From NCBI GenBank assembly GCA_021162365.1, contig JAGGYW010000001.1, forward strand, positions 2,906-66,905: DNA of 64,000 nucleotides, read 5' to 3'. The notes beneath the pieces are model-generated. The model did no database searches, was not told the origin of the DNA, and saw only the letters and a list, made by a program, of their open reading frames with translations. The translations under genes were made by a program, and so were the position numbers. Below are positions 14,824 to 42,030 of the stretch, piece by piece. How positions within the stretch are numbered: the stretch's first letter is position 1; the number at the start of each line of letters is the position of its first letter. The stretch is from Nanobdellota archaeon. GTDB lineage: Archaea > Nanobdellota > Nanobdellia > CSSed11-243R1.

Positions 14824-16701
14824 CTACCATCTTCCATATAGTTTAACTGCTCTTTCAAATATGTGTTCTTCTGACAATCCATATTTCTTAATTAGCTCTT
14901 CCGGTTTTCCAGATTCTGCAAATGTATCTTTGACGCCCATTTTGAAGAATGGAACATCGTTTGGTAATACATCCCTTACTGCGTCGCCAAGCCCACCAAT
15001 TACACTATGGTCTTCAACAGTTAGAATTGCATCAGTTCTATTTGCTAAATATTGTATTAGTTCTTCATCAATTGGTTTAATGGTTGGCATGTTGGCAACA
15101 TATGCACTGATGTCTTCTTCTATTTCAAGTCTTTTGGCAGCATTTAATGCTCTAAACACCATATCCCCTGTAGCAATAATTGCAATATCTTCTCCTTCTC
15201 GTAGAATTTCTCCCTTTCCAATTTTGAATTCGTAGCTGTTATGATGGATTACTGGCAAGTTGGCCCTATACATCCTTATGTAAACCGGACCATTATGACT
15301 TAATGTAGCTTCAACTGCTTTTGCCATCTCAACTGCATCGCTTGGATTAATCACTGTCATATTTGGCAAGACACGCATTAATGCAATATCTTCAAGTGGG
15401 ATGTGGGATGCACCATCCTCCCCTGTTATTAATCCGCCGTGCGAGCCAGCAATTACAACAGGTAAGTTAGAATATGCAACTGAATTTCTTATTTGGTCAT
15501 ATGTTCTTCCAGTTGCAAAAACTGCAAATGTTGATGCAAATGGTCGCTTACCACATGTAGCAAATCCAGCTGCAGTTCCAATCATGTCTGCTTCTGAAAT
15601 TCCCATGTTAAAGAATCTGTCTGGGTATTTTTCTCCGAATTTCTTTGATTGAGTTGAGCTTGCCAAGTCTGCATCAAGAACAACAATTTCTGGGAATGCA
15701 TCTCCAAGCGCAGCTAATGTTATCCCATATGCAACTCTTGTTTTTACCATACTCCCTCTTTCAAATGTTGGAAGTTCGTATGATTCTCTTTCTGGTTCAG
15801 TCTCTATTGATTTTGGTGGGGTTTTTACCTTTAGTGAAATGGTTGGTTTAATTTTGAGCGATTCCAATACAGCATTTATTTCATTTAGTGCTATTTCTTT
15901 TTGTTCTTCGTTTGGTGCTTTTCCGTGCCATCCGACTTCATTTTCCATGAAGGAAACTCCCTTACCTTTGGTTGTTTGAGCAATTATAATTGTTGGTACA
16001 TCTTTTGTGTTTCTTGCTTCGTCAAATGCTCTAATTAGCTTGTAGAAGTCATGCCCATCTACAACAAGTGTATTCCAACCAAAAGCTTCCCATTTTTCTT
16101 TTACAGGTTTTATATTCATTACCTCGCTTACTTTTCCATCAATTTGCAAGTGATTATAATCTAATATTGCACATAGATTATCAAGTTTGTAATTTCCTGC
16201 AGTCATTGCAGCCTCCCAAACCTGTCCTTCTTGAATTTCTCCATCTCCTAAGAGAACATAAACTCTGTAACCTCTTTTGTCTAATTTTCCGGCAAGTGCA
16301 ATCCCATTTGCAACAGATAGACCTTGTCCAAGAGAACCAGTGGAGATTTCTACATACGGCAGAAACGCAGATGAGGGATGTCCTTGCAATCTGCTTCCTA
16401 TCTTTCTTAAAGTTTTTAGCTCTTCAATTGGAATGAGTCCTGCCTCTGCAAGAACAGCATAAAGCGCTGGAGCCGCATGGCCTTTTGATAGTATAAATCT
16501 ATCTCTATTTAGATTGTTCCTTTCGTATCTCATTACATGGAAATAAAGTGCAGTTATAATATCTGTGGCAGAAAGAGAACCTCCTGGATGACCCGAGCCA
16601 GCTTCATATGTCATCTCAATTATATGTTTTCTTACTTTTGCTGCTGTTAGTTCTAAAGAATTAACTAATTTTTCAAGAGATTCATCTGGAACCAATTTCA
16701 C
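14824..16701 (-). CDS. tkt: Transketolase (N- and C-terminal halves fused in one ORF)
   Basis: SGHPGGSLS and the GDGEIQEG ThDP motif are in the N-half. The C-half is a pyrimidine-binding/transketolase domain. The halves are joined by a linker around [14 protein letters not shown]. Confidence 0.8.
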
Positions 16702-16807: not shown

Positions 16808-17066
16808 GGGGCCGTGGTCTAGAAACCCTTTCTTCCCGAAGAAAGCGTTTACGGAAAGAAGGGAAAGTTGGACAACTTGGTCTAGGATGCGTGCCTGGGG
16901 GCACCCTTTCCGCCTTCTTTAGAAAAGAAGGTAGGTTGCCAAGAAAGGGAAAGAAAGGGTAGTCCGGAACGCACGTGGTCCCGAGTAAGCCTTTTCTTTG
17001 GAAAGAAAAGCCTTAAGGGAAAAGAAACCAGGATGGGCTTCGGGAGTTCAAATCTCGGCGGCCCCA
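16808..17066 (+). tRNA. tRNA-Pro (GGG) with three introns (D-loop, anticodon loop, T-arm 53/54)
   Basis: Acceptor GGGGCCG/CGGCCCC+A. D stem GTCT/GGAT. Anticodon stem CGTGC/GCACG with loop CTGGGG. T arm CCGAG-TTCAAAT-CTCGG. Approximate introns 16823-16878, 16901-16969 and 16986-17046 leave a 73-nt mature tRNA. Confidence 0.8.
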
Positions 17067-17114
17067 CTCCATAAATTTTAAATGCATAGAAAAACTTATT
17101 CTCAAGTGTTTAAA

Positions 17115-17991: not shown

Positions 17992-18660
17992 ATGAAAATC
18001 ACATATTTGGGACATGCTTCATTTTTAATTGAAAGTGGGAAAAAAATTTTAATTGATCCTTTTTTAAGTGGGAATCCAAAAGCTACAGCTAAGCCATCCG
18101 AAATAGAAGCAGATATAATACTTGTTACGCATGGACATGGAGATCATCTTGGCGACACAGTCGAAATTGTAAAAAACACAGGAGCAAAAGTAGTGGCAAT
18201 TCACGAGATTCAGCAGTTTTTGCTAAAGCAAGGAGTTAATGCAATTGGTATGAATATTGGAGGTAGCATAGAAATAGATGGAATAAAAATTACAATGGTG
18301 CCTGCAATCCATTCCTCTTCTTTTGATGATAAATATATGGGACATCCGGCAGGATTTGTTATTCGTTTTAGTGATGGTATTGTTTATCATGCAGGAGATA
18401 CAGGAATTTTTTGGGATATGAAATTAATACATGAATTATACTCTCCAGATATAGCTATACTCCCAATAGGGGATGTTTACACGATGGGACCAAAGGAAGC
18501 TGCAAAAGCAGTTGAGTTAATTAAGCCAAAAATTGTTATTCCTATGCACTATGGGACTTTTCCAGTTTTGACAGGAACGCCTGAGAAATTCAAAAAGCTT
18601 GTCAGCGATGCAGAGGTTTTAGTTTTTGAGATTGGAGAAACAAAAGAGGTGAAATTATGA
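17992..18660 (+). CDS. Metallo-beta-lactamase fold hydrolase (UPF0173-like)
   Basis: MKITYLGHASFLIE...VTHGHGDHLGD (HxHxDH motif), about 220 aa. Confidence 0.75.
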   Translation: MKITYLGHASFLIESGKKILIDPFLSGNPKATAKPSEIEADIILVTHGHGDHLGDTVEIVKNTGAKVVAIHEIQQFLLKQGVNAIGMNIGGSIEIDGIKITMVPAIHSSSFDDKYMGHPAGFVIRFSDGIVYHAGDTGIFWDMKLIHELYSPDIAILPIGDVYTMGPKEAAKAVELIKPKIVIPMHYGTFPVLTGTPEKFKKLVSDAEVLVFEIGETKEVKL

Positions 18661-22631: not shown

Positions 22632-22787
22632 CCCGGCGTAGCTCAATGGTAGAGCGCACGGCTGTAGTGGGATGATGGAGAAATCCATCGTTGAAACCGT
22701 GAGGTTGCTGGTTCGACCAAGCCTTTCTTCCCGAAGAAAGCCTTGAGGGAAAGAAGGGGAGAGGCTTCGAGTTTCCGGCCGCCGGGA
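22632..22787 (+). tRNA. tRNA-Tyr (GTA) with two introns (37/38 and T-loop 58/59)
   Basis: Acceptor CCCGGCG/CGCCGGG+A. D arm GCTC-AATGGTA-GAGC. Anticodon stem CACGG/CCGTG with loop CTGTAG. T arm GCTGG-TTCGA..TT-CCGGC. Approximate introns 22668-22695 and 22717-22772. Confidence 0.8.
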
Positions 22788-22795
22788 CTTCAAAA

Positions 22796-22810
22796 GTTTT
22801 TTAAATATAC
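22796..22810 (+). promoter_or_regulatory. TATA-box candidate for tRNA-Asp
   Basis: GTTTTTTAAATATAC is centred about 29 nt upstream of 22832. Confidence 0.4.
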
Positions 22811-38693: not shown

Positions 38694-38717
38694 TACTATT
38701 TCATAGTAGCGATAGAA

Positions 38718-38762
38718 TTACCTTGAAGCAGCTGCCTGTCTTTGCACTTTTTCTTTAGAAAA
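38718..38762 (-). pseudogene. Orphan duplicate of the S7 gene 3' end (15 codons incl. stop)
   Basis: Minus strand reads ttt tct aaa gaa aaa gtg caa aga cag gca gct gct tca agg taa (FSKEKVQRQAAASR*). The true S7 end is ISKKTEVERQAAASR* at 38803-38850. Most differences are third-position and synonymous. Confidence 0.65.
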
Positions 38763-38787
38763 GAAAACCTGCACTAAAAGAAAAAGG
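38748..38787 (+). repeat. Py-hairpin + mirror purine module (copy E10)
   Basis: TTTTCTTT (38749-38756), loop AGA, AAAGAAAA (38760-38767), spacer CCTGCACT, AAAAGAAA (38776-38783, exact mirror). The pyrimidine arm is contributed by the S7 3'-end duplicate. Confidence 0.7.
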
Positions 38788-38802
38788 ATTAAATGTATGA
38801 GA

Positions 38803-39399
38803 TTACCTTGACGCTGCAGCTTGTCTTTCTACTTCTGTTTTCTTTGAAATTGCAAATGATTTTGGATCTTCCTTGCTTGCTGCAATTATTTCGTTTGCTA
38901 GCCCTTTCTCAATTGGCACTTTTTTATCGGCAACTGCTTGGAAAGCACCTTGAGTTAACCACCTTAAAGCCAAGTCAACTCTTCTTTGTGGTGAGGTATC
39001 AACTTGCTTTGGGACTCTTATTCCTCCGATTTCAATTACAGTGACCTCATCCCTTGGGGCTGCGTTTTCAACAGCTCTAACAAGAACTTCGACAGGATTT
39101 TGTTTGGTTTGCTTTTCAATTATTTCAAATGTTTTCTTTGTTATGTTGTAAACAGTTTGTGATTTTCCGGTACAGAACTCACTTGTCCTCCAGTGCTTCT
39201 TACCTTTGTGACCAGGGGACATAAGTTTGTTCATGAATCTTTCAACAATGTTAACATTACTTTTAGCAAACCTTGTGCTTGCATGTCTGCCATATGTTTG
39301 TGGGACAAAGAGAGGCTTTAAGTTTATAACACTCTTTAATCCAGGATCTTTGACTTCCACATTCGTATCATACTTCCCGAAAATTTTTATTTCCACCAT
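38803..39399 (-). CDS. rps7: 30S ribosomal protein S7
   Basis: 198 aa with typical archaeal S7 sequence (VERFMNKLM..GKK, VENAAPRDEV, RRVDLALRW). Confidence 0.9.
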   Translation of the reverse strand: MVEIKIFGKYDTNVEVKDPGLKSVINLKPLFVPQTYGRHASTRFAKSNVNIVERFMNKLMSPGHKGKKHWRTSEFCTGKSQTVYNITKKTFEIIEKQTKQNPVEVLVRAVENAAPRDEVTVIEIGGIRVPKQVDTSPQRRVDLALRWLTQGAFQAVADKKVPIEKGLANEIIAASKEDPKSFAISKKTEVERQAAASR

Positions 39400-40053: not shown

Positions 40054-41319
40054 ATGGCAGCAAAACCACACATAAATTTGGTCGTAATTGGTCACGTAGA
40101 CCATGGGAAGTCGACGATTGTAGGAAGATTACTTTATGAAACAGGTACAATCACCGAACAGGATATTGAAAGGTTAAAGAAAGAGGCAGCCGCCTTGGGT
40201 AAAGCCACATTCGAGTTTGCATATGTACTTGATGCAACTCGTGAAGAAAGAACAAGGGGTGTCACAATTGATTTGTCTCACATGAAATTCGAAACCCCAA
40301 AATATTACTTTACAATAATTGATGCACCTGGGCACAGAGACTTCATTAAAAACATGATTACAGGTGCGGCACAAGCAGATGCAGCTGTACTTGTAGTGGC
40401 TGCAAAAGAGGGTATCCAACCACAGACAAAGGAGCACGCATTCCTTGCGAAGGTTCTTGGAATTAAGCAGTTCATCGTTGCAATTAACAAAATGGATACA
40501 GTGGATTACAAAGAGGACGCATACAACCAAGTTAAGGCAGAGCTTGAAAAGTTCTTGAAGACAGCAGGGTTTAAGATAGACGAGATTACATTTGTGCCTG
40601 TGAGTGCATTAGAGGGTGAAAACGTAACAAAGAAGCTTGGAAAGATGCCATGGTGGAAGGGTCCAACATTGCTTGAAGCACTTGATGCACTTAAAGAGCC
40701 AGAAAAGCCAATTGACTTGCCACTTAGATTGCCAATACAAGATGTTTACTCAATTACAGGTATTGGTACAGTGCCTGTAGGAAGAGTTGAGACAGGTGTA
40801 ATGAAAGTTGGTCAGAAAGTTATCTTTGAGCCAGCAAATGTCTCAGGAGAAGTTAAGTCAATCGAAATGCACCATGAACAGATGCAGGAAGCAAAGCCAG
40901 GTGACAACATTGGTTTCAACGTGCGTGGTGTGACAAAAGAACAAATTAAGAGAGGAGATGTTGTTGGTCCAGTTGAAAACCCACCAACAGTTGCAAAAGA
41001 ATTCACAGCACAAATGGTTATCTTACACCACCCAACTGCAATTAGCAAGGGTTACACACCAGTATTGCACGCACACACAACACAAGTACCAGTTAAGTTT
41101 AAGGAATTGAAGCAAAAGCTTGATCCAAGAACAGGTCAAGTAGCACAAGAAAACCCAGACATGCTTAAGACAGGAGATGCAGCAGTTGTTGTGCTTGAAC
41201 CACAGAAGCCATTAGTAATTGAAAAGAGAAGCGAAATTCCAAAGCTTTCAAGCTTTGCAGTTAGAGACATGGGTGAAACAGTTGGTGCTGGCTTCGCAAT
41301 TGACATTGTGAAGCGCTAA
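40054..41319 (+). CDS. tuf: Translation elongation factor aEF-1 alpha
   Basis: [17 protein letters not shown] and NKMD G-domain motifs, 421 aa. Confidence 0.95.
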
Positions 41320-41340
41320 TTTCTTTCTTTACACTTTCTC
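41308..41340 (+). repeat. Direct repeat copy 1 (last 4 tuf codons + 3' flank)
   Basis: GTGAAGCGCTAATTTCTTTCTTTACACTTTCTC. It recurs at 41457-41488 with one indel and two mismatches. Confidence 0.7.
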
Positions 41341-41379
41341 TTTCTTTTCAAGAAAGAGAACCTGTGCTAAGAGAAAGAA
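41336..41379 (+). repeat. Py-hairpin + mirror purine module (copy E12)
   Basis: TTCTCTTTCTT (41336-41346), loop TTC, AAGAAAGAGAA (41350-41360), spacer CCTGTGCT, AAGAGAAAGAA (41369-41379). This is an exact 11-nt mirror with three matched G positions. Confidence 0.8.
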
Positions 41380-41397
41380 TCTTCTCCTTTGGTGCGA

Positions 41398-41450
41398 CTT
41401 TTCTTTTTTGATTTTTCTCTTTGGTAAAGCTTTTTCTTCCTAAGAAAAAG
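41398..41450 (-). repeat. Py-hairpin + purine tracts module (copy E13, opposite orientation, imperfect)
   Basis: Plus-strand hairpin CTTTTTCTT-CCT-AAGAAAAAG (41430-41450). The minus strand continues CTTTACC-AAAGAGAAAAA-TC-AAAAAAGAAAAG. Only the distal tract approximates the mirror. Confidence 0.5.
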
Positions 41451-41456
41451 GTTTTT

Positions 41457-41488
41457 GTGAAGCGCTAATCTTTTCTTTGCACTTTTTC
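41457..41488 (+). repeat. Direct repeat copy 2 (orphan copy of tuf 3' end + flank)
   Basis: GTGAAGCGCTAATCTTTTCTTTGCACTTTTTC lies 149 nt downstream of copy 1. Confidence 0.7.
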
Positions 41489-41524
41489 TAAAATTTTTAA
41501 AATATCCACCATCTATAATTTGCT

Positions 41525-41995
41525 ATGCCTAAAAAGTATCACGCAATTGGGTATGGTGGAACTTTCGGGCCTCTTCATGATGGACATAAGTATGCTATTC
41601 GACATGCCGCCGCTGTCGCGGATGTTGTGCATATTGGAATCACCTCAGATGGTTTAGCAAAGTTTAAGTCACCTAGTGTTCCACCCTTAAATGAAAGGAA
41701 AAAAGCACTTGAGGATTACCTCAGAACTATTGAAGGCAATTTTGTTGTTACTGTTATATATAATCCTTATGGAGAAGCGCCATCTTCGAAAGAATTAGAG
41801 GCAATAATCGCAACGTCAGGTACCCTTGATGCAGTAAGAGAAATAAGTCGCATGAGGAAATTAAACGGTCTTCCTGAATTGAAAGTTGAGAAGTTGGATT
41901 ATTTACTTGCTGAGGATGGAGAAAGAATTTCCTCAACTAGAATAAGGCGTGGCGAAATAACTCCGAGCGGAAAACTTGTTTCTGCAATGCGTTAG
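41525..41995 (+). CDS. coaD: Phosphopantetheine adenylyltransferase (archaeal type cytidylyltransferase fold)
   Basis: GGTFGPLHDGHK nucleotidyltransferase motif and C-terminal ISSTRIRRGE, 156 aa. Confidence 0.65.
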   Translation: MPKKYHAIGYGGTFGPLHDGHKYAIRHAAAVADVVHIGITSDGLAKFKSPSVPPLNERKKALEDYLRTIEGNFVVTVIYNPYGEAPSSKELEAIIATSGTLDAVREISRMRKLNGLPELKVEKLDYLLAEDGERISSTRIRRGEITPSGKLVSAMR

Positions 41996-41997
41996 TA

Positions 41998-42010
41998 ACT
42001 TTTATAAACC
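41998..42010 (+). promoter_or_regulatory. TATA-box candidate for S10 (leaderless spacing)
   Basis: ACTTTTATAAACC is centred about 27 nt upstream of the ATG at 42031. Confidence 0.4.
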
Positions 42011-42030
42011 CCTTTTGATGTGAAAATTGT

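Follow-up and report, generated by a model that had tools for sequence, protein, structure and literature searches.

Duplication of the tuf 3' end around modules of an intron-core family, with empty sites in related strains, in a Nanobdellota archaeon

We analyzed a 64,000-nucleotide stretch of a Nanobdellota archaeon (assembly GCA_021162365.1, contig JAGGYW010000001.1, positions 2,906 to 66,905 of the forward strand), here called the window, in which the 3' end of the tuf gene occurs twice, on either side of two small repeat modules termed E12 and E13. The tuf open reading frame (ORF; plus strand, 40054–41319) encodes aEF-1alpha of 421 aa (Pfam GTP_EFTU and GTP-eEF1A_C), whose same-genus orthologues have 93–95% amino acid identity. 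It is followed by a 205-nt spacer, a coaD-like cytidylyltransferase gene of 156 aa (plus strand, 41525–41995), and then the S10 gene; an A/T-rich box in the spacer, TTTTTAAAATA (plus strand, 41494–41504), reads as a putative coaD promoter. The host genome, designated G000, is a 22-contig archaeal metagenome-assembled genome of 722 kb with 36% G+C and an estimated completeness of 91%, and the sequencing runs holding the window are hydrothermal-vent metagenomes.

The upstream copy of the repeat, which is the functional gene end (plus strand, 41306–41341), consists of TTGTGAAGCGCTAAT, the T-tract TTCTTTCTTT, and then ACACTTTCTCT; the last 13 nt of tuf plus its stop codon fall inside this copy, and its final part (ACACTTTCTCT) is already the 5' edge of E12. 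The downstream copy, the relic (plus strand, 41455–41489), consists of TTGTGAAGCGCTAAT followed by CTTTTCTTT and GCACTTTTTCT. A repeat search of the window found the two occurrences of TTGTGAAGCGCTAAT (41306–41320 and 41455–41469) to be 100% identical at a spacing of 149, confirming the repeat claimed in the original prediction and placing the start of its exact part 2 nt further left, at 41306 and not 41308. Beyond the exact part, TTTCTTTACACTTTCTCT and TTTCTTTGCACTTTTTCT match at 16 of 18 positions (89%) with a one-indel offset, extending the similarity to ~41341 and ~41489, and the whole repeat including the T-rich tract amounts to ~35 nt per copy. Expressed as a duplication length, this is 15 nt exact, or 25–36 nt when the T-tract and the GCAC edge are counted. 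GTGAAGCGCTAAT occurs exactly twice within the window, and the 15-mer TTGTGAAGCGCTAAT only twice in the whole 722-kb genome. The T-rich part, TCTTTGCACTTTTTCT, is no proof of duplication taken alone because it is sequence of the module family, matching the module M5 found after rpS7 at 16 of 16 positions. The locus itself was recovered repeatedly, since a 3405-nt ENA scaffold from another assembly is 100% identical to it and a Logan contig of run X1 shows zero differences across 41000–41800. In a contig of another run, X4, the flank also bears E12, and the (TTTC)n tract behind the tuf stop (window 41321–41328) is 7 nt shorter; this tract behaves as a small microsatellite. Tandem duplication of a 149-nt unit was ruled out, as copy 2 leads into the putative coaD promoter and not into a second E12.

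Between the repeat copies lies an insert of 134 nt altogether, made up of E12, a 19-nt spacer, and E13. Module E12 (plus strand, 41331–41379) begins ACAC and continues with a pyrimidine (Y) arm, the loop TTC, a purine (R) arm, CCTGTGCT, and a second purine arm; copies at C2:28101 and, immediately behind a tRNA, at C16:2887 match it at 86–88% identity. After the spacer (plus strand, 41380–41398), module E13 occupies 41399–41454 on the minus strand. It is 93% identical to copies at C9:29147 and C9:28437, the second of which immediately follows the CCA end of a tRNA, and 95% identical to a module at the S27e gene of the same-genus genome G001. Both were recognized as family members by nhmmer (E = 2.3e-5 for E12 and 3.6e-6 for E13), so that the tail-to-tail arrangement originally described, with E12 in plus and E13 in minus orientation, is borne out. 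Comparison with paralogues defined the module termini, the E12 type beginning (A/G)CAC and the E13 type beginning AAACC. The E13 terminus (GGTTT on the plus strand) abuts repeat copy 2, and the right edge of the insert is therefore an exact module terminus (...AAGGTTT/TTGTGAAGCGC, where the slash marks the junction). Copy 2 also contains a resident half module, GCACTTTTTCT (plus strand, 41479–41489), which is present in the empty alleles described below and is a candidate homology patch; 16 nt at 41474–41489 are identical to the 5' edge of M5 at 38739–38754. A foldback or palindromic origin of the pair was ruled out, because E12 resembles E13 at only ~60%, less closely than each of them resembles paralogues elsewhere. 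When the whole 134-nt composite was searched for in G000, G001, and a second same-genus genome, G002, it matched only itself, with single modules matching at 86–95%; a genome-wide survey for the same composite thus returned a unit that is unique in G000 and absent as a whole from G001 and G002. As the stop codon falls within the duplicated piece, the insertion leaves the tuf ORF as it was: the upstream copy preserves the reading frame, and the downstream copy is non-coding and precedes the putative coaD promoter. The insert adds two hairpins and T5–T6 runs between tuf and that promoter, and the empty alleles also have T4–T5 runs. We consider this most likely a tolerated insertion with no sign of a selected function.

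The modules at the tuf end belong to the same family as the cores of multiple tRNA and 23S rRNA introns in this genome, a link that the original prediction had missed. In the family motif, a pyrimidine arm and a purine arm enclose a 3-nt loop, and CCTTGAGG or CCTGCAC then leads to a second purine arm. A hidden Markov model built from nine copies gave 92–106 family matches in the genome, often two to four in a row. With its two purine arms, the first of them complementary to the pyrimidine arm, the motif resembles the Y-R-R repeats of intrastrand triplex type (PIT/BoxC), but triplex formation alone would not explain the duplication at tuf. The tRNA-Pro(GGG) gene at window 16808–17075 is interrupted by family copies at three places, namely at D-loop, 37/38, and T-loop positions, and a scan for bulge-helix-bulge (BHB) motifs found a clean BHB, CCCG(AGU)...CGGG(AGU), in one of these introns. 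A second tRNA gene with family inserts lies at window ~22650–22800. Rfam reported 13 tRNAs in the genome, with one in the window, and ARAGORN found no tRNA in the window; we therefore conclude that most tRNA genes are hidden by module inserts. Further family copies lie in 23S-like DNA, immediately behind the 3' ends of tRNAs, and 0–20 nt from the stop codons of many genes, among them MCM, a GT4 glycosyltransferase, Asx-RS, TyrRS, and dCMP deaminase. The proposed restriction to the 3' ends of highly expressed translation genes is thus not borne out, given these MCM, glycosyltransferase, aminoacyl-tRNA synthetase, and deaminase genes (Pfam) and one duplication at a gene 5' end. Tail-to-tail pairs outnumber head-to-head pairs by 8 to 1 in G000. 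Tail-to-tail pairs were also seen inside DNA resembling 23S rRNA (contig C22 of G000, at 15426–15510, 18393–18472, and 18535–18614), where they are probably rRNA introns in which two modules form one long hairpin. One EndA gene is present in the genome.

The suggestion that empty sites be sought in related strains proved productive. A 356-nt contig of run X6 matches 41150–41320 (5 differences), continues with CTTTTC, and resumes at 41472–41562 (7 differences), and a 284-nt contig of run X9 matches 41260–41319, continues with ACTTTTCTT, and resumes at 41471–41685 (26 differences). In both, 151 window positions are skipped and 6–9 other letters stand in their place, and the order is tuf...GCGCTAA(T), a T-tract, GCACTTTTTCT, AAAATTTTT..., and coaD, so that the copy-2 flank directly follows tuf. 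The two contigs come from two different samples, and the strains differ from the window by 8% (X6) and 12% (X9) in coaD; as Logan contigs they are short, with a depth of ~4. Since the empty form occurs in two diverged strains, parsimony takes it as the likely ancestral state and the window form as a gain.

EF-1alpha was identified in 40 related genomes. In G001 the tuf stop is followed by a T-tract, one E13-type module, and then another gene; in G002, by TGCAC and a pyrimidine tract, with a module further on and an ORF fused to a coaD-like gene. G003, from the same family (94% at the amino acid level), has a contig that breaks exactly at the tuf end and an overlapping contig with a TGA stop and an unrelated flank, and JGI contig L033 carries an E12-type module after the tuf stop and then other DNA. 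A second tuf end is absent in G001, G002, G003, and L033. S10 follows in all four, and the finding that coaD separates tuf from S10 was confirmed, with the gap turning out to be a variable slot whose cargo differs per genome: coaD in G000, an unrelated 1.2-kb gene in G001, another gene in G003, and in G002 a longer coaD fusion plus 0.9 kb, with a coaD-like gene 57% identical to that of the window. G000 and G001 share the right-hand gap edge CGTTAGTAACTTTTATAAACCCC despite different cargo genes (window 41320–42030 region). At the end of G003:C6 and at G003:C24:1–126, the assembly breaks at the last tuf bases with a 126-nt overlap between contigs, and a G003-like tuf flank was seen as a second strain in runs X1–X3, where strain variation begins at the tuf stop codon. 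A conserved bipartite terminator would have been expected as a uniform structure in relatives; the second repeat is absent in the four relatives and the two strains, and the flanks differ in every genome. The empty sites in two samples thus indicate an insertion rather than a conserved bipartite terminator.

Similar architectures were found at other loci. Direct repeats were scored in flanks of 60 nt around each module cluster, with 3000 random sites for comparison, and the scan covered 644 of ~700 kb in G001 and the whole of G002. G000 gave two of 69 clusters at a score of at least 13 (expected ~0.05, range ~0.02–0.05), a result that speaks against repeat similarity of the kind expected by chance of T-rich flanks; G001 gave three of 61 clusters at a score of at least 12 (expected 0.37), and G002 one of 64 at a score of at least 13 (expected 0.13). 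When the last 20 nt of every ORF in the genome were searched for again up to 320 nt downstream, the score distribution equalled that of the control, and tuf and rpS7 alone stand out in it, by virtue of the modules between the copies. The rpS7 case lies on the minus strand (38717–38828), with the gene end at 38802–38828, a 14-nt filler, M5 at 38744–38787, and the relic at 38717–38743. Its gene end, AAAGACAAGCTGCAGCGTCAAGGTAAT, and relic, AAAGACAGGCAGCTGCTTCAAGGTAAT, are 27 nt long and match at 23 of 27 positions, all four differences being synonymous third positions. The module without the relic was found in G001 and neither in G003; the contigs of other strains end at the relic or close to it and show no clean empty site.

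The S27e gene repeats the layout seen at tuf. Its 3' flank in the window carries E8 (plus, 2021–2063), E9 (minus, 2064–2116), and a decayed echo of the S27e end (2117–2132), confirming the plus/minus arrangement originally described there. The echo, TAAGTGCTCGCAAAAC, matches weakly (11 of 16), as first claimed, and abuts the minus-module terminus exactly at the predicted relic position, with a frequency of 0.0024 under the null; we regard it as weak yet probably real. In G001, S27e shows GCCAAAGTTTTGGAAGTTCTCGAATAA, a plus/minus module pair, and GCAAAAGTTTTAGAAGTTTTCGAATGA before the aIF2-alpha promoter (27 nt, 23 of 27 matching), and the G002 locus has no modules. The module types stand in opposite order in the G000 and G001 pairs, which rules out orthology of the pairs and therefore makes them independent insertions. 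In G002, a ThrRS-editing-like gene carries ATGAAATTACTTCAGTGGCAT twice at its 5' end (21 of 21), around one module, and G001 has a repeat there of ~30 nt spanning the Shine-Dalgarno sequence, the start, and seven codons (12 nt exact), reaching the same codon as in G002; the site is empty in G000. At these two sites (G002:C5:45700–45800 and G001:C10:129030–129140), the relic start has a Shine-Dalgarno sequence of its own and begins a short ORF through the module, an ORF that stops at a TGA overlapping the real start (ATGA in G002, GTGA in G001). As read from the sequence, this looks like translational coupling that would neutralize the insertion. Finally, a perfect T-M-T-M-T array, built from an exact 43-nt target (T) and a module (M) of ~35 nt, covers the promoter region of a gene on the minus strand at G001 C13 (64650–64850); it was amplified very recently, through unequal exchange of the duplicated targets. 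At all of these loci, the relic lies directly against the 5' terminus of the module itself (GGTTT/TTGTG, GTGC/AAAGAC, AGTGCT/GCAAAAG, and CAC/AACC), and the tuf and G001 C13 targets end in 11–16 nt identical to the module edge (14 nt at C13). The duplication lengths vary among loci from 15 to 48 nt.

With moderate confidence, we favor the reading that the tuf composite is a strain-specific insertion, in which modules of the intron family would have been copied in at the DNA level, with target duplications that are long and of variable length; homology-guided template switching is the probable route. On this route, a nascent or repair strand would leave the T-rich terminator region after tuf at the point of likeness to a module edge (where the resident GCACTTTTTCT patch lies), copy module DNA up to the module's natural 5' terminus, and rejoin the original template a few dozen bases upstream at the microhomology TTG, so that the target is copied twice. 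Such copy-in, by template switching or gap repair and guided by homology between the T-tract and a module arm, would proceed without a dedicated transposase. Duplications this long and variable (15–48 nt) do not fit a classical transposase. Cas1 was not found in G000, TnpB in G000 gave only a sub-threshold zinc-ribbon match, and reverse transcriptase (RVT_1) was not found in three same-genus genomes, the search for enzymes being confined to these three families. Template switching or gap repair is favored because the duplications vary, no enzyme was found, and the composite is unique with paralogous parts. Templated insertions of the FoSTeS/MMBIR type (fork stalling and template switching/microhomology-mediated break-induced replication) show variable target duplication, a copied insert, and microhomology at the junction, with no enzyme of their own. 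The loci described here are like them in their variable-length duplications, in an insert derived from similar sequence elsewhere, and in the short homology at the junction; they are unlike them in being recurrent, in always involving one repeat family, and in always having one junction at a natural terminus.

The original prediction had proposed a MITE-like (miniature inverted-repeat transposable element) or recombination-generated insertion. The insertion holds, given the empty sites in X6 and X9, and a MITE in the strict sense does not, as the composite is unique, its ends are alike only at the family level, and its duplications run from 15 to 48 nt; among enzymes, the three families searched (Cas1, TnpB, and reverse transcriptase) were not found. 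Like the MITEs and other small intergenic repeats known in prokaryotes (those of Sulfolobus, Correia, ERIC, RUP, and REP/BIME), the tuf insert is small, non-coding, hairpin-forming, and strain-variable. It also shares with them the inverted modules at both ends, a position next to a gene end, a direct target repeat, and presence or absence between strains with an intact empty site (X6 and X9). Unlike MITEs, it has no true terminal inverted repeats (TIRs), E12 and the reverse complement of E13 aligning only at the family level with many gaps; the repeat search found no inverted repeat longer than 10 nt between the insert ends, whose termini are ACAC... and AAACC.... Nor is there a fixed short duplication, the lengths being 15–36 nt at tuf, 27 at rpS7, 27 at S27e in G001, 21–30 at the ThrRS-editing-like gene, and 43 at G001 C13, or a second, near-identical copy of the whole element in G000, G001, or G002. 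Its units are moreover shared with introns.

Several observations weigh against copy-in by template switching. Deletion between the two repeats would yield exactly the empty form, and the evidence for polarity is two Logan contigs of only 356 and 284 nt and low depth (~4). Most module clusters show no flanking repeat; a donor for the 134-nt composite is missing from G000, G001, and G002; and an enzyme could have been missed in a genome that is 91% complete. The E12-type module after tuf in L033 and the E13-type module in G001 mean that the donor could be another allele of the same locus, and the purely synonymous differences of the rpS7 relic, together with the stop codon kept in the G001 S27e relic, equally fit two diverged alleles. 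These last points lead to the main alternative, which we take seriously and nonetheless think unlikely, namely that the structure is a recombination scar between two tuf 3'-flank alleles and that no module moved. Its parents would be tuf-E12-E13-(other cargo) and tuf-half module-coaD. One end of the exchange would be a homologous crossover and the other an illegitimate join at the TTG microhomology, with the last 15 nt of the resident tuf left behind. The different tuf–S10 cargo in each of four related genomes is consistent with such exchange, as are the contig break in the G003 assembly right where tuf ends, with 126 nt shared with another contig, the E12-type and E13-type modules right after the tuf stop in L033 and G001, the likeness of both T-tracts upstream of RCAC, as alleles would have it, and the rpS7 relic, which differs from its gene at synonymous sites only and lies near a synteny break. 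However, an illegitimate join has no reason to fall within 1–2 nt of a module terminus, and it does so at all loci examined; random joins should also leave relics of any length, and all relics are short (12–48 nt). S27e in G001 and the ThrRS-editing-like gene in G001 and G002 show no change of cargo, the same genes flanking filled and empty sites, and E13 is nearer to the G001 S27e module (38 of 40) than to the module with a degenerate R-arm in the G001 tuf flank.

The remaining explanations fare worse against the same evidence. The insert could act as a functional RNA, in which the AGCGCU copies pair with each other, or the E12 Y-arm with the E13 R-arm, to form a relaxed BHB from which EndA removes the insert in the transcript. 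Minimum free energy and centroid folds do close the insert by AGCGCU/AGCGCU, and the BHB scan, which recovers the clean tRNA-Pro intron motif, gives [GCGC](UAA)...[GCGC](UAA) and CUUU(CUC)/AAGG(UUU) here, the latter with a 6-bp inner helix; the one EndA gene could supply the activity. But the helices flanking the GCGC site are merely 3 + 1 bp, BHB candidates are frequent in low-complexity Y/R sequence, the fold z-score is just -1.73, removal is not required of an insert lying after a stop codon, and the empty alleles show the structure to be dispensable. We judge this explanation improbable. More improbable still, in our view, is that the repeats are remnant attachment (att) sites of an integrase- or casposase-type element that targeted the tuf 3' end and later lost its interior. 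Casposons give 14–15-bp duplications. Integrative elements do duplicate the 3' end of a target gene, SSV1 and pNOB8 integrating at tRNA genes and SSV1 leaving a 44-bp tRNA-Arg repeat (PMC3293823), and at tuf likewise a direct repeat of the gene's last tens of bases, including a 15-nt exact part, brackets the insert and leaves the gene intact. Unlike such elements, the tuf interior holds nothing besides E12, E13, and the 19-nt spacer, and these 134 nt of repeats include neither a recombinase or integrase gene nor a remnant of one; the duplicated length varies by locus, other genes show this architecture around a single 40-nt module, the insert stops on the right at a module terminus and not at the end of an element, and the search for Cas1 in G000 was negative. 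Chance likeness of T-rich flanks or an assembly artefact might have been suspected because TCTTTGCACTTTTTCT is family sequence. Both are refuted: the 15-nt exact part is not T-rich and occurs just twice in the genome, only ~0.02–0.05 such flank repeats are expected per 69 clusters, and three independent assemblies agree.

The tuf modules belong to the sequence family that interrupts tRNA-Pro(GGG), other tRNAs, and 23S-like DNA as bona fide introns. The closest comparison is with the BHB introns of Thermoproteales. There, one family recurs at many tRNA-gene positions per genome, and the introns are held to move (Fujishima et al. 2010, as reported in PMC4090602 and bioRxiv 10.64898/2026.10.13.758758). 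The family described here is like these transposed introns, whose splicing relies on EndA, in occupying many positions in tRNA genes. It is unlike them in lying outside RNA genes as well, with a filled/empty polymorphism and a long target duplication, which point to an event at the DNA level. A DNA footprint for intron transposition in Thermoproteales is not described in PMC4090602 or PMC3293823, and the direct repeats at intron borders in PMC11782384 concern four archaeal introns only, with short repeats, and are not informative here. The route of intron arrival is called open in bioRxiv 10.64898/2026.10.13.758758.

How BHB introns enter archaeal tRNA and rRNA genes is the question on which these results bear, as an intron-core family is here caught on neutral ground, on which footprints persist, and the filled/empty polymorphism at tuf is a rare direct trace of an intron-type element entering DNA. 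The practical consequences are that Rfam sees only 13 tRNAs in this genome and that assemblies break at module sites. A 0.7-Mb genome tolerates ~100 such elements because insertions that duplicate stop or start regions leave the gene intact. The rules of arrival that we propose for introns are that it is DNA-level and homology-guided, with variable duplications of 15–48 nt. Long-duplication copy-in might even be the general birth route of archaeal BHB introns, through homology-guided template switching into heavily used DNA such as terminator tracts and tRNA and rRNA genes; this is a speculative extension that we consider doubtful. Were it true, each event would duplicate 15–50 nt, and after a stop or before a start the duplicate would rebuild the gene end, with the relic start at the ThrRS-editing-like gene of G001 and G002 perhaps even driving a coupled upstream ORF. 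Inside a tRNA or rRNA gene, the duplicated exon segment would join the insert and supply an exon-like strand from which a BHB could evolve, and the intron would survive.

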